IMG/VR virus record: IMGVR_UViG_2602041644_000001
DNA length: 31,107 bases
DNA from: a virus
Taxonomy: Duplodnaviria > Heunggongvirae > Uroviricota > Caudoviricetes
Direction: 5' to 3' (one strand)
The position numbers were made by a program, and so were the translations under genes. Below, piece after piece: positions 4,735 through 30,411 of the stretch. Numbering within the stretch: position 1 is the first letter of the stretch; the number at the start of each line of letters is the position of its first letter. Below the pieces are notes generated by a model. That model saw nothing but the letters and a program-made list of their open reading frames with translations, made no database searches and was not told the DNA's origin.

Positions 4735-5487
4735 ATGAACCTTGAAGCCTTACCGAAATATTACTCCCCAAAATCTCCAAAATTGAGCGATGACGCACCG
4801 GCGACAGGCTCTGGTGGTTTAACAATTACGGATGTAATGGCTGCGCAGGGGATGGTGCAGTCGAAAGCACCGCTTGGGTTTGCCTTATTCCTGGCAAAAG
4901 TTGGTGTTCAGGATCCTCAGTTTGCGATTGAAGGTCTGCTCAATTACGCGATGGCACTGGATAACCCGACATTGAACAAATTGAGTGAAGAAACCCGGCT
5001 ACAGATCATTCCTTACCTTGTGAATTTTGCCTTTGCTGATTATTCCAGGTCTGCGGCAAGTAAGGCTCGCTGTGAGCATTGTGCTGGTACTGGATTTCAT
5101 GATGTATTGCGCGAGGTGGTGAAACACTCCAGAAGCGGGGAATCTGTTATCAAGGAAGAGTGGGTGAAGGAACTGTGTCAGCATTGTCATGGTAAGGGAG
5201 AAGTCAGCACAGCGTGCAGAGGGTGTAAGGGTAAAGGTATTGTCCTGGATGAAAAAAGAACCCGGCTTCATGGCACGCCTGTTTATAAGGTTTGTGGGCG
5301 TTGCAATGGAAACCGGTTTAGCCGTTTACCAACCACACTGGCGCGGCTTCATGTCCAGAAGCTGGTACCAGACCTGACGGATTATCAGTGGTACAAAGGA
5401 TATGCAGATGTCATTGATAAACTGGTTACAAAGTGCTGGCAGGAAGAAGCGTATGCTGAGACACAATTGAGGAAAGTGACGAGATGA
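4735..5487 (+). CDS. Putative late-gene antiterminator Q (QuuQ-like, four CxxCxGxG zinc-finger repeats)
   Basis: 250 aa with CEHCAGTG, CQHCHGKG, CRGCKGKG, CGRCNGNRF repeats. Immediately upstream of a strong promoter and intrinsic terminator, and of the lysis cassette. Confidence 0.6.
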   Translation: MNLEALPKYYSPKSPKLSDDAPATGSGGLTITDVMAAQGMVQSKAPLGFALFLAKVGVQDPQFAIEGLLNYAMALDNPTLNKLSEETRLQIIPYLVNFAFADYSRSAASKARCEHCAGTGFHDVLREVVKHSRSGESVIKEEWVKELCQHCHGKGEVSTACRGCKGKGIVLDEKRTRLHGTPVYKVCGRCNGNRFSRLPTTLARLHVQKLVPDLTDYQWYKGYADVIDKLVTKCWQEEAYAETQLRKVTR

Positions 5488-5518
5488 ATGATTTTCGACG
5501 AAAATGGCGACATGATGC

Positions 5519-5547
5519 TTGCATTTTTCAAAAAAAATGGATAATAT
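5519..5547 (+). promoter_or_regulatory. Putative late promoter (pR'-like)
   Basis: TTGCAT (5519-5524), 17-nt spacer, TAATAT (5542-5547), directly downstream of the Q-like gene. Confidence 0.5.
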
Positions 5548-5593
5548 TATCTCAATGATAGGCATTGTGTGTCCGGCTTTAATAAAAAGTAGA

Positions 5594-5620
5594 AAACCCG
5601 CTGATGTGCGGGTTTTTTTT
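5594..5620 (+). terminator. Intrinsic terminator (tR'-like)
   Basis: Hairpin CCCGC-TGATGT-GCGGG followed by T8. Confidence 0.7.
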
Positions 5621-5698
5621 CGGAATTTTAGATGTGTGGCATTGAAATGGTATTCGGCGAGTAGGTAGAATTTAAACTTTCGTCTCGTCTGGATCGAC

Positions 5699-6241
5699 AT
5701 GATGTTTCAAGCCTTCCAAACAGCAGTATTTAAAAATGTTGCAGAGTATTTAAAAGGGCGCTTCCCTCATAAGTCGTTAGGGCTCGTATATGCCGACGAG
5801 CTGGTACTAAAAGATATGGAGTTCCTCAAGGCTAACAATAAACTGCGGTGGGATCCCGGACTAAAGTCGCGAGTGTTTATGGATATGATGGAAGAACACC
5901 CGATAAAACTAGTTGTTTATTATCGTGGGGAGCCTATTGGATTTGCATTTGGGTGTTACTGTAAGCCGAAAAATGCGGTGCATATTTGCTGGATGGAAAA
6001 ACGTAATGATGCACATGAAGACCTAGACCATCAGATGCTTGGTATCGTTTTGGATTGCTTCTCTGCATATGCACGATTTCTGAACCTTCAGGGTGAATCT
6101 ATTGATTCGATAGCTTTAGTTAGTCCAGTTGATGGGGCAATAAGATACTATACTGAAAGTGGTTTTGAGTACATTGCTGATTACGAACGAGGTGGTTGCG
6201 CAATGGTGCTTAGGAGCGTTTTACCTAACCAATCAGTGTGA
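5699..6241 (+). CDS. Cargo protein, possible GNAT-like acetyltransferase fold
   Basis: 180-aa ORF in a visibly AT-rich island. Segment MLGIVLDCFSAYARFL...AIRYYTESGFEY loosely fits GNAT motifs A/B. No confident family assignment. Confidence 0.5.
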   Translation: MMFQAFQTAVFKNVAEYLKGRFPHKSLGLVYADELVLKDMEFLKANNKLRWDPGLKSRVFMDMMEEHPIKLVVYYRGEPIGFAFGCYCKPKNAVHICWMEKRNDAHEDLDHQMLGIVLDCFSAYARFLNLQGESIDSIALVSPVDGAIRYYTESGFEYIADYERGGCAMVLRSVLPNQSV

Positions 6242-6432
6242 GTTAGATTCTTAATTTCTCCAGAATCATTACAAAAGTATTGAAAACCTCTTTTAGTTGA
6301 TGCAATCTGGATCCACACAAAGCACACACAAAATGTACTACGCTTTACTTTATACATCTTCAGGTAACAAACTTTGTTGCCTTTATGCTTCAAAGAAGCA
6401 ACTACAGCTTAGTGCTGAACAAGGGGATTTTT

Positions 6433-6618
6433 ATGAAACATCATGAGCAGATAGAGATTGAGGCAGCTAAAGTCGTCGCCGAACTCTTTGCTGGCAATGC
6501 ATCTCCAATGGAAACCTTTGGTATTACATGGAGTCAAACTCAGATGTTAGAGCGTAAGAATCCTGGTGTAGTGATCAAACTAGTACCGGATGACGGTAAA
6601 AAACTTGCGTATTGCTGA
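6433..6618 (+). CDS. Small hypothetical protein (61 aa)
   Basis: ATG at 6433 with AAGGGGA RBS. AT-rich context, followed by an intrinsic terminator. Confidence 0.45.
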   Translation: MKHHEQIEIEAAKVVAELFAGNASPMETFGITWSQTQMLERKNPGVVIKLVPDDGKKLAYC

Positions 6619-6676
6619 TAATTTTTAAAGATTTTTTCAGCTAGAGAATCGATTATTTTACTATAAATCGCGAAGG

Positions 6677-6705
6677 AGCCCCACATATTGTGGGGCTTTT
6701 TGTTT
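6677..6705 (+). terminator. Intrinsic terminator
   Basis: Hairpin AGCCCCA-CATATT-GTGGGGCT followed by a T-run. Confidence 0.6.
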
Positions 6706-6875
6706 CATCTTAGTTAGCCGTTATTCACATTCACTACTTTGCTACTTATCCACTGTAAAAATAAATTGTGAATTATTTTGTGGCTTATTGTTAGTGTTCT
6801 ATCAATTTTGTGTGTGATATTCCATTGGCGTGGTTATTATCTGTGCATCGCACTTAAATGTATAAAGCTCACTAG

Positions 6876-7190
6876 TTGAGACAATCCTACCACCAGTTGG
6901 TGGTATCTCATGATTCACTGAATTGCAAATCTTCTGAATTGCTGGATGAGTTTAAATCTCACCGGCGCTATTTCTCCGTATCAGTCTCCGTGCCTTATAC
7001 CGATGTCAGGACGCATAAGCCCGTTCAGTTCTACCCGGGTAAACATCCGTGCGAGAAACCGGCGGATATGCTCAGGCAAATAATCAATGCCAGTAGTCGA
7101 CCTGGTGATCTGGTTGCTGATTTCTTTATGGGATTCGGTTCCACAATAAAAGCAGCAATGGCGCTGGGGCGTCGGGCGTTAGGTGTTTAA
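6876..7190 (+). pseudogene. C-terminal remnant of an N6/N4 DNA methyltransferase
   Basis: Only the C-terminal AdoMet-binding part is present (HPCEKPADMLRQII, DFFMGFGST ~ HPTxKP / FxGxG). The N-terminal ~35 codons are unrelated and there is no DPPY motif. Coding status of the remnant unknown. Confidence 0.6.
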
Positions 7191-7326
7191 CTTGAGTCAG
7201 AGCGGTTTAATCAGACGGTGAAAGAGGTAAGTGAACTGGTGGGGAAATAATTCTGGTGGCCACGTTGCGTGGCCTTTTTATTTCCAACACAGCACCCGCA
7301 AATATCGCGAGGTGAGAGATGACGAA

Positions 7327-8133: not shown

Positions 8134-8509
8134 GCTGGTTATTTCTGCTTTCCTCCTGACTTTATTCGGTTCTCTCGTCTGGTCAGCTAACCACTACCAC
8201 AGCAAATACCAGCGCGAAAAGAAACGTGCTGATGAGGCTGTACAAAATGCCGAATCGGCAACCGCTATTACCAATAACGTCCTGCAATCACTGCAAATCG
8301 TCAATACAGTTCTGGAGGCTAACCAGCATGCAAAACAGCAGATCGCACTGGAGTCACAGAGAACCCAGGCTGATATCAAAGTGGCTGTTGCGGATGATGA
8401 TTGTGCTGTACGCCCTGTGCCTGCTGCCGCTGCTGACCGGTTGTGGAAGTACGCGAACAGTTTACGTGAGCATTCCGAAGACTCCACTACCAGTCAGCTT
8501 GACTTCTGA
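8117..8509 (+). CDS. Rz-like inner-membrane spanin (i-spanin)
   Basis: N-terminal TMD (LVISAFLLTLFGSLVWSANHYH, cf. lambda Rz ...WAVNHY) and charged coiled-coil periplasmic domain. Overlaps the R stop. Confidence 0.75.
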   Translation: MKLRYKLVISAFLLTLFGSLVWSANHYHSKYQREKKRADEAVQNAESATAITNNVLQSLQIVNTVLEANQHAKQQIALESQRTQADIKVAVADDDCAVRPVPAAAADRLWKYANSLREHSEDSTTSQLDF

Positions 8510-8642
8510 TACACCTGTACCGTTTATACCCAACCCACTGACGTATGGTGCAAGTCTTGATTTGAATGTAAGTTTGTTATCCGCGTTGGCTCAATGTAAT
8601 AGGGATAAGTCAGATATCAGAATCATTGATAATCAAAATTGA
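8394..8642 (+). CDS. Rz1-like outer-membrane lipoprotein spanin (o-spanin), overlapped type
   Basis: +1 frame relative to Rz. Lipobox LLTGC after a hydrophobic signal, proline-rich mature region. Extends 133 nt past the Rz stop. Confidence 0.7.
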   Translation: MMIVLYALCLLPLLTGCGSTRTVYVSIPKTPLPVSLTSDTPVPFIPNPLTYGASLDLNVSLLSALAQCNRDKSDIRIIDNQN

Positions 8643-8846
8643 TGTATATTTTTATCGTCATGTAGATAACGAACAAGGTATTCCTCTGATACGTATTCGT
8701 TGAATACAGGTCATGGGTAGGCATTGCAATATCGCTTCGAAATTATCTGTGATAATGCTCTTAATTTTGAATGTATGTATTTGGGAAAAGAGATAAAGTA
8801 ATAGTCTAATTAATGGAGATATCCACAAAACACAAAAGGGACTATT

Positions 8847-9353
8847 ATGAGACCAGATCAATTTTTCTATCCAGATACTTTTACCTTTAATTCATCCACC
8901 TATTATGGTCAACGTGACTCATCTAAAGGCCGATTGTATATTCCTATTGAAAGTGACTTATGCCCATTTAATATCGGCGATATCATTGTGCAAAAAATGG
9001 TCGACAGGGAAAGACTATTTGAAGTGCTTGATTACGAGGTGCAAATTAGTCTCGAGGTTGGTTGCCCTGGCTACTCACATTTGGCGGTATTGATAGTGAA
9101 GGCATTGGATGTAAAAGAGAAGCCGAAGCAGATTACGACCCATTTGACGTTTAACGGTGCTATTAATGCTGGTGGTGATTTTCAAGCCGGTAATGATAAT
9201 TCGATCACAAAGAATATAACCATTCAACAACTACATGATGCTATAGAGCATTGCAATGATCCAGAGGTTAAAAGCCTTTGGCAAAAGCTATTGGAAAATC
9301 CGACGTTTGCTTCAATTGCTTCAATATTGGCAAAAAGTGCTTTAGGACAGTAA
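8847..9353 (+). CDS. Hypothetical cargo protein (168 aa), no recognisable family
   Basis: AT-rich island between the lysis and packaging modules. RBS AAAAGGGA, own AT-rich upstream region and own intrinsic terminator. Confidence 0.6.
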   Translation: MRPDQFFYPDTFTFNSSTYYGQRDSSKGRLYIPIESDLCPFNIGDIIVQKMVDRERLFEVLDYEVQISLEVGCPGYSHLAVLIVKALDVKEKPKQITTHLTFNGAINAGGDFQAGNDNSITKNITIQQLHDAIEHCNDPEVKSLWQKLLENPTFASIASILAKSALGQ

Positions 9354-9361
9354 TTCATCAA

Positions 9362-9386
9362 GCCCCATTCAATATGGGGTTTTTAT
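9362..9386 (+). terminator. Intrinsic terminator
   Basis: Hairpin CCCCAT-TCAAT-ATGGGG followed by TTTTTAT. Confidence 0.6.
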
Positions 9387-9410
9387 GCTTATTACAAAGA
9401 GTTTTCTTCA

Positions 9411-9761
9411 ATGCCACCACGAATCCCAAAATCCTGCCGCGTTCGCGGCTGCCGCCATACCACTACTGACCCGTCAGGCTACTGCGAAAGCCACAAAAGC
9501 GAAGGCTGGAAGCAATACAAGCCAGGACAATCCCGTCATCAGCGCGGCTACGGTTCGAAATGGGATGCTATCCGTGAACGTGTACTGAAACGTGACAAAG
9601 GTTTATGTCAGTTATGTCTGCGTGCCGGTGTGGTGCGTGAAGCGAAAACCGTTGACCACATCATCCCTAAAGCGCATGGCGGCACTGATGCCGACTGTAA
9701 TCTGCAGAGTCTGTGCTGGCCGTGTCATAAGGCGAAGACGGCCCGTGAACGGTTGAAGTGA
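9411..9761 (+). CDS. HNH endonuclease (terminase-associated)
   Basis: Cys-rich N-terminus (CRVRGCRH...CESH) and HNH core (VDHIIPKAHGGTD...NLQSLCWPCHKAKT), immediately upstream of the terminase genes. Confidence 0.85.
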   Translation: MPPRIPKSCRVRGCRHTTTDPSGYCESHKSEGWKQYKPGQSRHQRGYGSKWDAIRERVLKRDKGLCQLCLRAGVVREAKTVDHIIPKAHGGTDADCNLQSLCWPCHKAKTARERLK

Positions 9762-9782
9762 TAATGATTCTCAACTTCCTGA

Positions 9783-9848
9783 GGGGAGGGGCGGGTCAAA
9801 TCCCTGCGGCCTGACGTCTTCCGGACTGCCCGCCCCATCGTTTTTTTA
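9783..9848. other. GC-rich stem-loop element plus T-run (terminator and/or part of the cos/packaging region)
   Basis: GGGGCGGG (9788-9795) pairs with CCCGCCCC (9829-9836), followed by ATCGTTTTTTTA. Lies between HNH and the small terminase subunit, where HK97-like phages carry cos. Confidence 0.4.
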
Positions 9849-9886
9849 TACCCGCGAAAAATGAAATTTAACCAGGAGTGCCGCAT

Positions 9887-10381
9887 ATGGCTGGAACGGC
9901 GGGGCGTTCCGGGCGTCGCCCCAAGCCAACGGCGCGCAAGGCGCTGGCCGGAAACCCCGGCAAGCGAGCCCTGAATAAAGATGAACCTGTTTTTACGCCC
10001 ATCAAAGGTGTTGAGCCACCGGAGTGGTTCGCTGAAGAAGATCTCCCTCTCGCTACGATCATGTGGCAACTGACAACTAAAGAACTCTGCGGTCAGGGCC
10101 TGCTGTGCGTGACTGACCTCGCGGTGCTTGAGCGGTGGTGCGTGGCCTACGAGTTCTGGCGACGTGCCGTGAAAAATATTGCCAGACAGGGCAACACCAT
10201 CACCGGTGCAATGGGCGGTATGGTCAAAAATCCGGAGCTGACCGCCAAAAAAGAACAGGAGTCCGAGATGAGCAGTACGGGGGCAATGCTCGGACTCGAC
10301 CCCAGCAGCCGCCAGCGTCTGATTGGCCTGGCGGGGCAGAAGAAAGCCACTAACCCGTTTCTGAAAATCATCGAATCATGA
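9887..10381 (+). CDS. Terminase small subunit
   Basis: Basic N-terminus ([22 protein letters not shown]). ATG at 9887 after ACCAGGAG. Stop overlaps the large-subunit start. Confidence 0.8.
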
Positions 10382-12111
10382 GCCGGAAATCTTACCCCAA
10401 CGTAAATGCTGCCAATCAGTATGCCCGTGATGTCGTGCGCGGAAAGATTGTGGCCTGCCAGTTTGTGATTCAGGCCTGCCAGCGCCATCTTGATGACCTA
10501 ATGGAGGAAAAAAGTAAGTCGTTTCGTTACCGCTTCGACAAGGACCTGGCTGAACGGGCCGCGAAATTTATTCAGCTGTTGCCGCACACCAAGGGTGAGT
10601 GGGCATTTAAGAGGATGCCCATCACGCTGGAGCCGTGGCAGCTCTTTGTGATCTGCTGCGCGTTTGGCTGGGTCAATAAAGGCTCCCGGCTGCGCCGCTT
10701 CCGTGAGGTGTATACCGAAATCCCCCGTAAGAACGGCAAATCGGCAATCTCTGCCGGTGTCGCCCTGTATTGTTTTGCCTGTGATAACGAGTTCGGCGCG
10801 GAAGTGTATTCCGGTGCCACGACGGAGAAACAGGCATGGGAAGTCTTTCGTCCGGCAAGACTGATGTGTAAACGCACACCCATGCTGACGGAAGCGTTCG
10901 GGATTGAGGTTAACGCCTCAAACATGAACCGTCCGGAGGATGGTGCGCGTTTTGAACCGCTGATCGGTAACCCCGGTGATGGTTCATCACCCCACTGTGC
11001 GGTGGTGGATGAATATCACGAGCACGCCACAGATGCGCTTTACACCACGATGCTTACCGGGATGGGGGCGCGACGTCAGCCACTGATGTGGGCTATCACT
11101 ACCGCCGGGTACAACATTGAGGGGCCGTGCTACGACAAACGGCGGGAAGTCATCGAGATGCTCAACGGCTCGGTGCCTAACGATGAACTGTTCGGGATCA
11201 TCTATACCGTTGATGAAGGTGACGACTGGACCGACCCGCAGGTGCTGGAAAAAGCCAATCCAAATATTGGCGTGTCGGTTTATCGCGAATTTTTGTTAAG
11301 TCAGCAGCAGCGTGCGAAAAATAACGCCCGTCTGGCAAACGTCTTTAAAACAAAACACCTCAATATCTGGGTGTCGGCGCGTTCGGCGTATTTCAACCTG
11401 GTGAGCTGGCAGAGCTGCGAGGATAAATCACTGACCCTTGAGCAGTTCGAGGGGCAGCCGTGCATTCTGGCCTTTGACCTGGCGCGTAAGCTGGATATGA
11501 ACAGCATGGCGCGACTTTATACCCGCGAGATTGACGGTAAAACGCATTACTACAGTGTGGCCCCGCGTTTCTGGGTACCGTATGACACGGTGTACAGCGT
11601 CGAGAAAAATGAAGATCGACGGACAGCCGAACGCTTTCAGAAATGGGTGGAAATGGGCGTTCTGACCGTTACCGATGGTGCGGAGGTGGATTATCGCTAC
11701 ATCCTCGAGGAGGCCAAAGCGGCGAACAAAATCAGCCCGGTCAGTGAGTCACCCATCGACCCCTTCGGGGCGACCGGGTTGTCACATGACCTTGCTGATG
11801 AAGACCTGAACCCCATCACTATCATTCAGAACTACACCAACATGTCCGACCCGATGAAAGAGCTGGAAGCGGCAATTGAATCGGGGCGCTTTCATCATGA
11901 TGGCAATCCCATCATGACCTGGTGTATCGGCAACGTGGTCGGCAAAACCATTCCGGGTAACGATGATGTGGTGAAGCCCGTTAAAGAGCAGGCGGAAAAC
12001 AAAATCGATGGTGCAGTTGCGCTGATTATGGCGGTTGGCAGAGCCATGCTGTACGAGAAAGAAGACACGTTGTCTGACCACATTGAGTCCTATGGGATCC
12101 GCTCGCTTTAA
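10378..12111 (+). CDS. Terminase large subunit
   Basis: 577 aa with ATPase and nuclease regions, HK97-like organisation. Confidence 0.95.
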
Positions 12112-12122
12112 CTGAGGTAATT

Positions 12123-12305
12123 ATGATCATGCTGATTCTCGCGCCTCTGGTGGGCGTGCTGGGGGCGCTTTTGCTGGCGTATGGTGCCTGGCTGATTTAT
12201 CCCCCGGCGGGGTTTGTTGTTGCCGGGGCGTTGTGCCTGTTCTGGTCGTGGCTGGTGGCGCGATATCTTGACCGTACACAGTCGTCTGTCGGCGGAGGTA
12301 AATAG
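12123..12305 (+). CDS. Small hydrophobic protein (two predicted TM helices)
   Basis: 60-aa ORF with RBS between terminase and portal. Could be spurious. Confidence 0.35.
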
Positions 12306-15394: not shown

Positions 15395-15401
15395 TCACTC
15401 A

Positions 15402-15430
15402 GGGGCGCGGAACCGCGCCCCTGTTCTGAT
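15402..15430 (+). terminator. Terminator-like hairpin after the capsid gene
   Basis: GGGGCGCGG-AACC-GCGCCCC stem with a weak T-tract. Confidence 0.4.
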
Positions 15431-21732: not shown

Positions 21733-23061
21733 ATGACGTGGAAAGACAGGCTTCAGGACGCGTCATTTCGCGGTGTGCCGTTTAAGGTTGAAGAAGAAAG
21801 TGCGGGAACCGGTCGCCGTGTGGAAACACACGAATATCCGAACCGCGACAAGCCCTATACCGAAGACCTGGGGAAAATCACTTTTCGCCCGTCCATCACG
21901 GCTTATGTGGTGGGAGATGACTGCTTTGACCAGCGTGATCGCCTGATTGACGCGCTGAATAAACCCGGTCCCGGCACGCTTGTCCATCCGACTTACGGTG
22001 AGCTGAAAGTCTGTGTTGACGGAGAGGTTCGGGTCAGCACATCGAAGAGTGAAGGGCGTATTGTCCGCTTTGACCTGAAGTTTGTCGAAGCGGGAGAACT
22101 CTCTTACCCCACATCAGGTGCGGCGACGGCGCAGACGCTGATGTCATCCTGTTCTGCACTGGATGACTGCATCAGTGACAGTTTCAGTGGTTTCAGTATC
22201 GATGGCGTGGCAGATTTTGTGCAGAACGACGTCGTCGGTAATGCCAGCACAATGCTTGGGTATGTTTCTGATGCGATGAAAGTGGTGGATTCTGCCGTAT
22301 CGGATGCCGCCAGGCTGTTGCAGGGGGATATCTCGGTACTTCTGCCGCCGCCATCGTCAGGCAAAAATTTCGTTGAGCAGGTGCAGAAAATGTGGCGTAC
22401 CGGGAAACGCCTTTATGGTAACGCCAGCGACCTGGTCACCATGATCAAAACGCTTTCCGGTGTCAGCCTCGGCAGCGATCTGCAACCGCGCGGCGTCTGG
22501 AAAACGGACAGTAAAACCACCGCCACGGCGACGCAGCAGCGTAACGTGGTTGCCAGTACCCTTCGTACGACCGCAATCAGCGAAGCGGCGTATGCCGTCA
22601 CACGATTGCCTGCGCCCACAACTTCCGCGGTGATGCAGAATGCCACAGTGGGGCAGTCAACAACACCCGCGCAGAGCACCGGCTGGCCTTCTGTCACGCA
22701 TCCGGCACTGAACAATGCACCGGCGGTGAAAAACACGGTTGACCTGCCAACGTGGGAAGAACTGACCGACATTCGCGACACGCTGAATACGGCAATTGAT
22801 AAGGAGTTGTCCCGTACAACCAGTGATGCGCTGTTTCTGGCACTGCGCCGGGTGAAAGCAGATCTGAATGCGGATATCAACACGCGCCTTGAACAGTCTG
22901 CACGGATCATTCAGCGCACGCCGGATGAGGTCTTACCCGCGCTGGTGCTGGCGGCGACCTGGTTTGATAACGCGGCGCGTGACGCGGACATTATCCGGCG
23001 TAATGCCATTAAACATCCCGGCTTTGTGCCGGTGATCCCTCTGAAGGTGCCAGTGCAATGA
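21733..23061 (+). CDS. DNA circularisation protein (Mu N-like)
   Basis: N-terminus MTWKDRLQDASFRGVPF typical of Mu N-like proteins. ATG 21733 preferred over 21691. Confidence 0.8.
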   Translation: MTWKDRLQDASFRGVPFKVEEESAGTGRRVETHEYPNRDKPYTEDLGKITFRPSITAYVVGDDCFDQRDRLIDALNKPGPGTLVHPTYGELKVCVDGEVRVSTSKSEGRIVRFDLKFVEAGELSYPTSGAATAQTLMSSCSALDDCISDSFSGFSIDGVADFVQNDVVGNASTMLGYVSDAMKVVDSAVSDAARLLQGDISVLLPPPSSGKNFVEQVQKMWRTGKRLYGNASDLVTMIKTLSGVSLGSDLQPRGVWKTDSKTTATATQQRNVVASTLRTTAISEAAYAVTRLPAPTTSAVMQNATVGQSTTPAQSTGWPSVTHPALNNAPAVKNTVDLPTWEELTDIRDTLNTAIDKELSRTTSDALFLALRRVKADLNADINTRLEQSARIIQRTPDEVLPALVLAATWFDNAARDADIIRRNAIKHPGFVPVIPLKVPVQ

Positions 23062-27489: not shown

Positions 27490-28082
27490 TGAAACCTGTT
27501 TTTGATGAAAATGGGCTGGCTACAGTGCCGGGTGATATGCGTTGTTATTATTATGATGCAGTAACGTCTGAATATACGGGCTGGTCTGATGAATATATTA
27601 ATACTGGCGTAAGTATGCCCGCCTGTTCCACTGGTATTGACCCGGGCGAATACATTCCGGGGCAAGTGGCAGTATTCACGGGTAAGGGATGGAGCCATGA
27701 AGAAGACCATCGCAATGAGACTGTTTACTCAACAGAAAATGGCGCAGCTGTTACAGTGGATTATATCGGTGCCATCAAAGACGGTTATGTCACGCTTTCA
27801 CCGTTAACGCCATACGATAAATGGGATGGTGAGAAATGGGTGACAGATACTGAGGCACAGCATAGTGCCGCACTAGACGCGGCAGAAGCACAGCGCCAGT
27901 CGCTGATTGATGCTGCAATGGCTTCCATCAGTCTGATTCAACTGAAATTACAGGCCGGGCGGAAGCTGACGCAGGCAGAAACAACCCGACTTAACGCCGT
28001 GCTGGATTATATTGACGCGGTGACGGTAACAGATACCAGCACTGCGCCGGATGTCATCTGGCCTGAACTGCCGGAGGCGTAG
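27489..28082 (+). CDS. Tail fibre assembly protein (Tfa) for the expressed cassette
   Basis: 197 aa with a typical Tfa C-terminus (…DTSTAPDVIWPELPEA). Start coupled to the fibre gene stop. Confidence 0.8.
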   Translation: MKPVFDENGLATVPGDMRCYYYDAVTSEYTGWSDEYINTGVSMPACSTGIDPGEYIPGQVAVFTGKGWSHEEDHRNETVYSTENGAAVTVDYIGAIKDGYVTLSPLTPYDKWDGEKWVTDTEAQHSAALDAAEAQRQSLIDAAMASISLIQLKLQAGRKLTQAETTRLNAVLDYIDAVTVTDTSTAPDVIWPELPEA

Positions 28083-28494
28083 GCCATTCAATATCTGGCG
28101 CACCGGAAGTATCGACCAGTTCCAGTGTGTCCAGATAATCCAGCCACAAATTATATTGCGCCAGTTCCTCACCTTTCAGGCGACCAATCGCCGCTTTACC
28201 AGGCCATTGCTTACTGTTTATGTATTCGTTGACCTGATTAATCAATTGCTGCTTTTCCAGTTCGGCTGCGGCAATTTGTTCCTCATGAGTTGGCGGTGGA
28301 ATATCAATCCATGCAGGCATTCCGTCGATGACACCTCTGTATTTTCCTTCTGGTGCTTCCTTCATAAATTCGGCGGCAACAGTGTCGTCAATTTCGATTC
28401 CATCATCGGGCCATTCGCCGGATTCCTGATAAGCGATTTTAAGCTCCACAGGGAAAAACGCATTTTTATCGGCACTGAAAATATATTTCTGCAT
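28054..28494 (-). CDS. Alternative tail fibre assembly protein (Tfa') for the silent cassette
   Basis: 146 aa on the minus strand with the matching C-terminus (…DTSGAPDIEWPTPPAVQAR). Convergent with and overlapping the plus-strand tfa by 29 bp. Confidence 0.8.
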   Translation of the reverse strand: MQKYIFSADKNAFFPVELKIAYQESGEWPDDGIEIDDTVAAEFMKEAPEGKYRGVIDGMPAWIDIPPPTHEEQIAAAELEKQQLINQVNEYINSKQWPGKAAIGRLKGEELAQYNLWLDYLDTLELVDTSGAPDIEWPTPPAVQAR

Positions 28495-28496
28495 TT

Positions 28497-28855
28497 CTAC
28501 CGTCCTATCGAAATATAACTGAATCTGTATTGCTGTGAGATATCACTGGTTGCCACACGCCACGCTGAATTACTGATATGTTCAAAATTTACAGACAAAA
28601 CCTGCAGGGCAGGATTCGACGGGTCTGACTGAACGGCATCAGACATAACACTGACTGAAACCATCGGCTGATTAGGGAATGGTATAGGGAAGTGTCCACT
28701 GATAAAGCGGGTCGTGTTTCCTGAAAAAGTGCCAAACTGAACAATATATCCACCTGGTAGCCTGAACCATCCCGAACCAGAAGCGAATGCTCCCATATCC
28801 GGTATCTGATTATCTCCTGTGCCCACATCCCTTTTCGCCGCTTCTCCCAAACCAA
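28497..28855 (-). CDS. Silent alternative tail-fibre C-terminal cassette (promoterless until inversion)
   Basis: Minus-strand frame reads GLGEAAKRD… from the crossover site, the same GLGE junction as the plus-strand fibre. Confidence 0.7.
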
Positions 28856-28867
28856 CATTTATGAAAA
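28841..28867. repeat. Right inversion crossover site (gix/pix-like)
   Basis: CTTCTCCCAAACCAACATTTATGAAAA. The first 15 nt are the inverted repeat of 27023-27037. Located just upstream of pin. Confidence 0.65.
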
Positions 28868-28921
28868 TGCAGAAATAACGAGCAAATGGCATCATTCCTG
28901 CTTTTGCTAGGGAGATCTACC

Positions 28922-29476
28922 ATGCTTATTGGCTATGTACGTGTGTCAACAAATGACCAGAACACAGATCTACAACGTAATGCGCTGAACTGTGCAGGAT
29001 GCGAGCTGATTTTTGAAGACAAGATAAGCGGTACAAAGTCCGAAAGGCCGGGACTGAAAAAACTGCTCAGGACATTATCGGCAGGTGACACTCTGGTTGT
29101 CTGGAAGCTGGATCGGCTGGGGCGCAGTATGCGGCATCTGGTCATTCTGGTTGAGGAGTTGCGCGAACGTGGCGTTAATTTTCGCAGCCTGACGGATGCT
29201 ATTGATACCAGCACACCGATGGGGCGTTTTTTCTTTCATGTGATGGGTGCCCTGGCTGAAATGGAACGAGAACTGATTGTTGAACGAACAAAAGCTGGAC
29301 TGGAAGCTGCTCGCGCACAGGGACGAATTGGGGGACGTCGTCCCAAACTTACACTAGAACAATGGGCGCAGGCCGGGCGATTAATTGCATCAGGCATTCC
29401 TCGCCAGAAGGTGGCGATTATCTATGATGTTGGTGTGTCAACTTTGTATAAGAGGTTTCCTGCAGGGGATAAATAA
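28922..29476 (+). CDS. pin: Serine DNA invertase (Pin/Gin/Hin family)
   Basis: MLIGYVRVSTNDQ catalytic N-terminus and C-terminal HTH. 184 aa like e14 PinE. ATG 28922 after GGGAGA. Confidence 0.95.
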   Translation: MLIGYVRVSTNDQNTDLQRNALNCAGCELIFEDKISGTKSERPGLKKLLRTLSAGDTLVVWKLDRLGRSMRHLVILVEELRERGVNFRSLTDAIDTSTPMGRFFFHVMGALAEMERELIVERTKAGLEAARAQGRIGGRRPKLTLEQWAQAGRLIASGIPRQKVAIIYDVGVSTLYKRFPAGDK

Positions 29477-29577
29477 AGTTAAAGACACTTTGTGTACAAA
29501 ATAAAACAACAGCAACTTGTTGCAATTTTATCAATAAAAGTAGTATTGTCGTAAAAAATTGATTAAAGATTAATGCT

Positions 29578-30411
29578 ATGCATGTTTTTGATAATAATGG
29601 AATTGAACTAAAAGCTGAGTGTTCGATAGGTGAAGAGGATGGCGTTTATGGTCTAATCCTTGAGTCGTGGGGGCCGGGTGACAGAAACAAAGATTACAAT
29701 ATCGCTCTTGATTATATCATTGAACGGTTGGTTGATTCTGGTGTATCCCAAATCGTAGTATATCTGGCGTCATCATCAGTCAGAAAACATATGCATTCTT
29801 TGGATGAAAGAAAAATCCATCCTGGTGAATATTTTACTTTGATTGGTAATAGCCCCCGCGATATACGCTTGAAGATGTGTGGTTATCAGGCTTATTTTAG
29901 TCGTACGGGGAGAAAGGAAATTCCTTCCGGCAATAGAACGAAACGAATATTGATAAATGTTCCAGGTATTTATAGTGACAGTTTTTGGGCGTCTATAATA
30001 CGTGGAGATCTATCAGAGCTTTCACAGCCTACAGATGATGAATCGCTTCTGAATATGAGGGTTAGTAAATTAATTAAGAAAACGTTGAGTCAACCCGAGG
30101 GCTCCAGAAAACCAGTTGAGGTAGAAAGACTACAAAAAGTTTATCTCCGAGACCCGATGGTAAAAGCTTGGATTTTACAGCAAAGTAAAGGTATATGTGA
30201 AAACTGTGGTAAAAATGCTCCGTTTTATTTAAATGATGGAAGCCCATACTTGGAAGTGCATCATGTAATTCCCCTGTCTTCAGGTGGTGCTGATACAACA
30301 GATAACTGTGTTGCCCTTTGTCCGAATTGCCATAGAGAATTGCACTATAGTAAAAATGCAAAAGAACTAATCGAGATGCTTTACGTTAATATAAACCGAT
30401 TACAGAAATAA
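29578..30411 (+). CDS. mcrA: McrA-type modified-cytosine restriction endonuclease (HNH)
   Basis: 277 aa. C-terminal HNH motif (HHVIPLSSGGADTTDNCVALCPNCHRELH) with CxxC pairs. Sequence and position after pin match e14 McrA as recalled. AT-rich gene. Confidence 0.85.
   Translation: MHVFDNNGIELKAECSIGEEDGVYGLILESWGPGDRNKDYNIALDYIIERLVDSGVSQIVVYLASSSVRKHMHSLDERKIHPGEYFTLIGNSPRDIRLKMCGYQAYFSRTGRKEIPSGNRTKRILINVPGIYSDSFWASIIRGDLSELSQPTDDESLLNMRVSKLIKKTLSQPEGSRKPVEVERLQKVYLRDPMVKAWILQQSKGICENCGKNAPFYLNDGSPYLEVHHVIPLSSGGADTTDNCVALCPNCHRELHYSKNAKELIEMLYVNINRLQK

Follow-up and report, generated by a model that had tools for sequence, protein, structure and literature searches.

The 125-bp gap between an HNH endonuclease gene and a small terminase gene (terS) in the 31,107-nucleotide stretch of DNA that we analysed as a whole (hereafter the window) very probably represents the HK97-type, HNH-assisted cos of an SfV/SfI/e14-like temperate phage integrated in Escherichia coli, and the stem-loop that appears within the gap would be a coincidence of two DNA elements, as judged from sequence comparison. 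The cos site at this location is already known, having been mapped in phage SfI and annotated in phage phiP27.

Identity of the prophage and its packaging genes

By megablast against phage records, the window region was 98–99% identical at the nucleotide level, over HNH-cos-terS-terL, to the Shigella flexneri serotype-converting phages SfV, SfI, SfII, and SfIV, 98% identical to E. coli phage vB_EcoM-689R6, which has the same arrangement including an extra ORF at 8847–9353, and 80–94% identical to Salmonella phages ST64B and 118970_sal3. The HNH–terS region could be found in 1153 of the 5426 complete E. coli genomes, in which RefSeq names the two products 'HNH endonuclease' and 'phage terminase small subunit P27 family'. 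Like e14/SfV-like prophages, the window contains a myovirus tail sheath, a Pin invertase, and McrA. In SfV, SfI, SfII, and ST64B, the ends of the linear record fall within the HNH–terS gap, so that HNH stands at one terminus and terS at the opposite one.

The initial annotation had described an HNH gene and a small terminase gene adjoining each other across a 125-bp gap, and the ORFs, Pfam matches, and coordinates confirm this arrangement. The HNH gene (9411–9761, + strand) encodes a gp74-like packaging accessory nuclease of 116 aa (Pfam PF01844, E 5e-15; PHROG 144), which shares 45% identity with HK97 gp74 across 42 aa and has as its top PDB match 5H0M, an HNH endonuclease. Exactly 125 bp of intergenic DNA (9762–9886) separate it from terS (9887–10381, + strand; 164 aa), a member of the P27 family (PF05119 Terminase_4, E 2e-21; PHROG 83) that is 99–100% identical to the terS of SfIV and 689R6; a Shine-Dalgarno sequence AGGAG, read from the sequence (9874–9878, + strand), lies 8 nt before the ATG at 9887. 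The HK97-type large terminase gene terL follows (10378–12111, + strand; Pfam TerL_ATPase and TerL_nuclease), and the sole PDB match of its product was HK97 TerL (6Z6D, E 4.8e-25, residues 112–556). Further downstream, Pfam assigns a portal (PF04860, 12305–13546), an S78 prohead protease (PF04586, 13488–14174), and an HK97-fold major capsid protein (PF05065, 14189–15394). A small + strand ORF (12123–12305, 60 aa, hydrophobic) wedged between terL and the portal gene belongs to phrog_502, 'moron, membrane protein'.

HNH thus stands directly upstream of terS and terL, all on the + strand, and the order of portal, S78 protease, and HK97-fold capsid after TerL matches the HK97-type module. HK97 has the same gene order as the window, HNH-cos-terS-terL-portal-protease-capsid, and its TerL and HNH are homologous to those of the window. 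The small terminases are different, as the window terS showed no detectable similarity to HK97 gp1 (BLASTP E 7; phrog_83 versus phrog_5601), and HK97 gp1 has no Pfam match whereas the window terS belongs to PF05119. In view of this difference, the module should be regarded as a P27-terS variant, the family being named after the Stx2e phage phiP27.

The genes for the Q antiterminator (4735–5487), holin, lysozyme, and Rz are located upstream of HNH on the same strand, and a promoter scan found no promoter-like sites on the + strand between HNH and terS, so that the terminase and head genes would need late transcription reading across cos. Late transcription reads across cos in other lambdoid phages as well. 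From the gene order, late transcription would start downstream of Q, run through the lysis genes and HNH, cross cos, and proceed into terS, terL, portal, protease, and capsid.

Probable location of the cohesive end and the nick

When virion DNA of SfI was subjected to run-off sequencing from primers in HNH and terS, 10 nt, 5'-TGCCCGCCCC-3', were absent in comparison with the prophage (PMC3636060). This cohesive end is present unchanged at 9827–9836 of the window (+ strand), the SfI GenBank record ends exactly on it, and its flanks, GGAC on one side and ATCG/GTCG plus a T-tract on the other, match exactly over 9823–9847, as in cos of the SfV/SfI group. SfV, SfI, SfII, and SfIV are identical to the window in the cohesive end, in the G-rich box upstream of it, in spacer length, and in the block to its right, with only a few spacer substitutions, and SfV differs by lacking the extra 168-aa ORF (8847–9353) and the terminator that stand between Rz and HNH in the window. 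In phiP27, which has the same architecture and spacing, the annotated 'cos-site' CGCCCGCCCC (AJ298298, misc_feature 21806–21815) is homologous to the 10 bp of the window and differs from them by one base; the intergenic identity between phiP27 and the window is about 79%, and the right-hand block differs in detail (AAATTAAAAATT).

The junctions at which other phage records terminate could be placed on the same position. HK97 ends with ...ATGAC|CGCCGCCAAA and aligns to the window nick, Edwardsiella phage EPP-1 ends with ...GTAC|TGCCCGCCTC, and the Proteus phage Pm34 record opens precisely at GAC| on the opposite strand, so that the record termini of HK97, EPP-1, Pm34, and mycobacteriophage 244 fall on one AC| junction, with the 10-nt termini of the HK97, SfI, and EPP-1 records beginning exactly there. 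Deposited records are not all cut at cos, as the SfV record starts at window position 9820, off the nick. The earlier suggestion of an HK97-like cos between HNH and the small terminase, to be compared with the HK97 cos region, is therefore supported: the SfI-mapped end lies at 9827–9836, the ends of phiP27 and HK97 are equivalent, and the HK97 ends align to the nick position of the window. The position of cos rests on identity with the SfI end together with the record termini of six phages, and the length of 10 nt is taken from SfI and phiP27.

Comparison of 19 diverse cos regions shows three conserved blocks (L, N, and R) set apart by spacers whose sequence varies and whose length is fixed; the one around the nick is block N (9825–9833, AC|YGCC). 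Its motif AC|TG (9825–9828, + strand) contains C9826 and G9828, which are invariant, and A9825, which is at least 90% conserved; the bottom-strand nick would fall at 9826|9827, and the top-strand nick, as read from the SfI-mapped end, at 9836|9837. HK97 has 10-nt 3' overhangs (PMC9410871, PMC11331095). One statement in the literature points otherwise, since the Discussion of PMC9410871 swaps the overhang lengths (10 nt for lambda and 12 nt for HK97), whereas its own Fig. 1 legend gives HK97 a 10-nt 3' overhang. The SfI paper leaves the polarity unstated (PMC3636060). The run-off reads showed a gap rather than an overlap, the outcome expected of 3' extensions, in which both templates end at recessed 5' ends, and from this gap together with HK97 we infer that the cos ends of the SfV group are 10-nt 3' overhangs. 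The same paper reports a one-base difference, T versus A, between the cos of SfI and that of SfV at the 5' end (PMC3636060). The SfI and SfV records both read TGCCCGCCCC, their sole nearby difference is A/G just past the overhang, and the T/A difference was thus not reproduced.

HK97 gp74, the HNH protein, stimulates cos cleavage by terminase (PMC9410871, PMC13595911). By identity with the mapped SfI ends, TerL together with HNH would nick the bottom strand of the window DNA at 9826|9827 and its top strand at 9836|9837 to give 10-nt 3' overhangs TGCCCGCCCC, a polarity that follows from the gap result and from HK97. Packaging would then go rightward from the terS end and stop at the next cos. 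The cosQ-cosN-cosB arrangement of lambda resembles that of the window in having an upstream element on the last-packaged side, a nick site, a terS-side site beside the terS gene, and staggered nicks; however, the overhangs of lambda are 5' and 12 nt long, its gpNu1/gpA terminase belongs to a different family, its cosB is IHF-dependent, and it has no HNH partner and no sequence similarity. A lambda-type cos was rejected for the window, because the terminase families differ and SfI gave a 10-nt gap.

A defective prophage with cos as a relic that is no longer cut would be conceivable from the insertions relative to SfV (the ORF at 8847–9353 and the low-GC island at 5400–7200) and from the truncated methylase at 6876–7190, none of which is direct evidence. 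Nevertheless, all packaging and head genes in the window are intact ORFs, the cos elements do not differ from those of SfI, a plaque-forming phage, and vB_EcoM-689R6, with its 98% identity and the same arrangement including the extra ORF, has been deposited as a phage record, so that we regard a relic as improbable. The insertion and the island are described further below.

The inverted repeat as a probable by-product of two DNA elements

The gap contains a perfect 8-bp inverted repeat, GGGGCGGG (9788–9795) and CCCGCCCC (9829–9836), whose arms are 33 nt apart, and a run of seven T (9841–9847) that starts 4 nt past the 3' arm. The initial annotation had described a GC-rich stem followed by a T-run, read as a terminator and/or a structure recognised by terminase. 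The repeat and the T-run are indeed there, whereas the hairpin fares less well, with a loop of 33 nt and a fold no better than that of shuffled sequence. When the 125-bp gap was shuffled with dinucleotide composition retained, 350 of 5000 shuffles (7%) contained a perfect 8-bp inverted repeat with a loop of at most 40 nt; the repeat is only mildly above chance. For RNA folding of 9755–9890, z was +0.68, and 147 of 200 shuffles folded at least as well.

An almost gap-free alignment of the 19 cos regions was used to follow the two arms among relatives, the sequences having been collected by DNA similarity, by terS protein similarity only (Burkholderia, Pseudomonas, Moraxella, Psychrobacter), and by pattern-matching the 5' arm plus TCAAATC in viral contigs. 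The eight stem pairs formed 75.0% standard pairs in this alignment, compared with 74.7% after the letters of the 3' column were shuffled, a value reached by 250 of 500 shuffles, and a double change occurred in only one of the eight pairs, so that covariation was absent. At least seven of the eight Watson-Crick pairs were kept in only 12 of the 48 distinct HNH-linked loci that retain the 5' arm, and whole groups of relatives carry a G-rich sequence (e.g. CGGCGTGGGG) at the position of the 3' arm. Because covariation is lacking and complementarity is lost in most relatives, the pairing is best understood as incidental to the presence of a G-rich box opposite an overhang that is usually C-rich. 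The proposal that the stem is a terminase recognition structure is therefore not supported, as the 3' arm is the cohesive end (which contains 9829–9836) and the 5' arm is part of the conserved G-rich box.

A Rho-independent terminator or attenuator closing the lysis/HNH transcription unit would need the repeat and the T-run to act together. The perfect 8-bp G/C stem (MFE −26 kcal/mol for 9785–9848) with a U7 run beginning 4 nt past it could be read in this way, and such a terminator would be non-lethal if Q-modified RNA polymerase reads through it, while it could cut basal terminase expression in the lysogen. Nevertheless, the 33-nt loop and the 4-nt gap to the U-tract are unfavorable, and the fold is no more stable than expected. 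The terminator scan did not call the stem; the only + strand terminator that it called in 8500–10600 was a canonical intrinsic terminator after the inserted ORF (9360–9382), which lies outside cos and serves here as context. Moreover, the stem shows no covariation, relatives in which it is missing still carry the T-tract as a piece of the conserved block to the right of the cut, and terS and terL depend on read-through, given the lack of a promoter-like site before terS. A terminator at the stem thus appears unlikely, and the suggestion made of it at the outset is not sustained. A search of 9300–9950 with the covariance models of Rfam 15 gave no match at E ≤ 1, and ARAGORN found no tRNA or tmRNA in the window. 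A stem-loop acting as a selected RNA/DNA hairpin or as a dedicated terminator is, on this comparative evidence, not supported.

That the dyad GGGGCGGG/CCCGCCCC could serve the SfV subgroup only, as a functional symmetric recognition element or cruciform for terminase/HNH, is very improbable, since its perfect form in SfV, SfI, SfII, SfIV, ST64B, and phiP27 and its survival with a G-T wobble in sal3, F1055, and EPP-1 concern close relatives in which descent explains retention, whereas HK97, phi467, and the Klebsiella, Burkholderia, Moraxella, and gut-phage groups combine an equally spaced G-box with overhangs that are not complementary to it, and the pairing is no better than column shuffles.

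Among smaller structures, a T-arm-like appearance of GGGTCAAATCCC was considered and rejected, because the would-be 5-bp stem is broken in TCTAC variants without compensation. A small palindrome occurs in the spacer of several phages, at differing registers. Two separate DNA elements, the G-rich box and the cohesive end, thus remain the preferred reading of the repeat.

A conserved G-rich box upstream of the nick

The G-rich box (block L, GGGGAGGGGCGGGTCAAATCCCTG; 9783–9806, core 9788–9802, + strand) contains the 5' stem arm and is the block with the highest information in the alignment of the 19 cos regions, in which its consensus is GGGGAGGGGCGGGTCAAATC with three G's, one further G, and one A invariant. 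Between the box and the nick lies a spacer (9807–9824, + strand) of variable sequence and fixed length, with low information and almost no indels in the alignment. Counted from T9796, which directly follows the G-run, to the base that opens the overhang, the distance is 31 nt in the window, and the same 31 nt were found in SfI, phiP27, HK97, phi467, Pm34, a Klebsiella phage, a Burkholderia phage, Moraxella phage Mcat31, and mycobacteriophage 244, while EPP-1, Pseudomonas VW-6S, and Psychrobacter Psymv2 have 30 nt. In HK97, as in the window, a G-run plus TCAAATC precedes GAC| by 31 nt, and a C-rich end of 10 nt comes next; HK97 differs in its overhang (CGCCGCCAAA), in a G-run that is not complementary to the overhang, and in being a siphovirus.

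A scan for the G-box pattern returned 120 viral contigs (88 unique), in most of which an HNH ORF ends just upstream of the box, 2–100 nt away in most of the pattern-selected loci. These loci include gut-phage lineages with a distant HNH, P27-like terS N-termini, and ParB-methylase genes downstream. In several cases the box overlaps the last codons of HNH in differing frames, giving …GGSNL (loci L098 and L056) or …GAGQI (L065), and the stop codon of Mcat31 lies inside the box; such differing reading frames indicate that conservation acts at the DNA level. The related-locus search with an alignment of five HNH sequences had returned only relatives of 94–100% identity.

Mycobacteriophage 244, chosen through a weak terS similarity, provides a view from outside these HNH-linked loci. 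Its right end reads GAGGGGGTGGGGGTGG, then 31 nt, and the record closes with GAC|CGCTTGTCA, in which CGCTTGTCA makes up the terminal 9 nt; the cos geometry is the same as in HK97 and SfV. No HNH ORF was found within 4 kb of its right end or 1.6 kb of its left end. A reading of the G-box as a mere 3' flank of HNH or as an HNH-specific site is weakened by this phage, in which the box stands without a nearby HNH.

Conversely, the box was missing upstream of terS in two P27-terS phages that have no adjacent HNH, Streptococcus Javan159 and Coprococcus NatCom_10489, and also in Vibrio phage H2, in which HNH abuts terS. The HNH stop codon of Vibrio H2 is 6 nt from the terS start, and its cos must lie elsewhere or differ.

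The phages with a G-box span HK97, SfV-like phages, phiP27, Klebsiella, Proteus, Burkholderia, Pseudomonas, Moraxella, Psychrobacter, and gut Firmicutes-type phages, and mycobacteriophage 244, and the spacer and overhang sequences vary freely among them. We tentatively propose, with somewhat less than even confidence, that the G-box, with the consensus GGGGAGGGGCGGG plus TCAAATC or a related A-rich heptamer, located 30–31 bp (three helical turns) before AC|YG, is a cross-phylum cos subsite, perhaps a site at which TerL and/or HNH docks or measures to place the bottom-strand nick at termination. Lambda cosQ occupies a similar position, likewise on the last-packaged side. An upstream element of this kind was absent from the HK97 packaging papers and the 2026 review that were consulted, and a literature search for the motif string gave only unrelated primer matches.

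The right-hand block and the small terminase

To the right of the cut lies a block (block R, +5 to +33; 9841–9869, + strand) composed of T7 (9841–9847), CCCGCG (9851–9856), A5 (9857–9861), and AAATTT (9864–9869), a putative cosB-like terS site. From E. coli outward to phages of Burkholderia, Pseudomonas, and Moraxella, the block is conserved as non-coding DNA, and the terS of these phages is only 46–50% identical. In Salmonella phage F1055 and in phi467, block R switches with the type of terS and block L stays, which indicates that L and R are separate modules.

The HK97 terS binds +15 to +29, a CCCG plus A-tract site with a C:G step beside the A-tract (PMC11331095). At the corresponding positions, +15 to +29, the window reads CCCGCGAAAAATGAA, and like HK97, which carries CCCG and an A/T-tract downstream of the cut where its terS binds, the window has CCCG and an A-tract there. 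The location of the HK97 site, together with the co-variation of block R with terS type, leads us to assign block R to terS, and it is likely to be the binding site. By the same HK97 analogy and co-variation, the P27-family terS would bind the T-tract/CCCGCG/A-tract block at about 9841–9869 on concatemeric DNA.

As for F1055 and phi467, these phages have HNH, the G-box, and the nick region in common with the window, and their right-hand block and terS are of other types. Such a modular cos suggests recombination at or near the nick.

Other features of the prophage

The ORF at 8847–9353 (+ strand, 168 aa), between Rz and HNH, belongs to phrog_5789, has no Pfam or PADLOC match, and has a GC content of about 38–44%. 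It is missing in SfV, in which Rz1 is directly followed by HNH, and present in vB_EcoM-689R6; a query of ORF-HNH-cos (8700–10000) found a match with at least 80% coverage in only 27 of 5426 E. coli genomes. The ORF looks like a moron. A low-GC island (about 40%; 5400–7200) lies between the Q antiterminator and holin genes and includes an ORF of phrog_11949 with no function assigned (5699–6241) and, at 6876–7190, an ORF that retains only the C-terminal portion of an N6/N4 DNA methylase (PF01555, positions 156–209 of the 221 in the profile).

At the e14-like end of the prophage (28051–30411), a Pin-type serine invertase (28886–29476) stands beside oppositely oriented ORFs of the tail-fibre region (28054–28895), an arrangement that suggests an invertible segment. 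The same end contains a low-GC, McrA-like type IV methyl-directed restriction HNH enzyme (29578–30411; PADLOC mREase_IV, E 1e-200), the second HNH protein in the window and one unrelated to the packaging HNH. Inside the late operon, a GC-rich perfect inverted repeat with a short loop (15400–15423) directly follows the stop of the major capsid gene (15394) and is likely a genuine intrinsic terminator or attenuator.

Implications for genome ends and packaging

With cos placed in the HNH–terS gap, the virion genome ends of this prophage could be annotated to the base, the left end starting from 9837 and the right end extending to 9836. The assignment of cos packaging to the prophage leads us to expect specialised rather than generalised transduction. 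Beyond this single prophage, the base-resolution comparative map of HK97/P27-type cos sites, with its G-box, may offer a simple sequence signature by which the cos termini of prophages and of metagenomic phage contigs can be predicted. A conserved G-box at fixed spacing is unaccounted for by HK97 packaging models, which comprise the terS site at +15 to +29 and the stimulation by gp74, and the box could therefore be targeted to learn what places the second, HNH-dependent nick.
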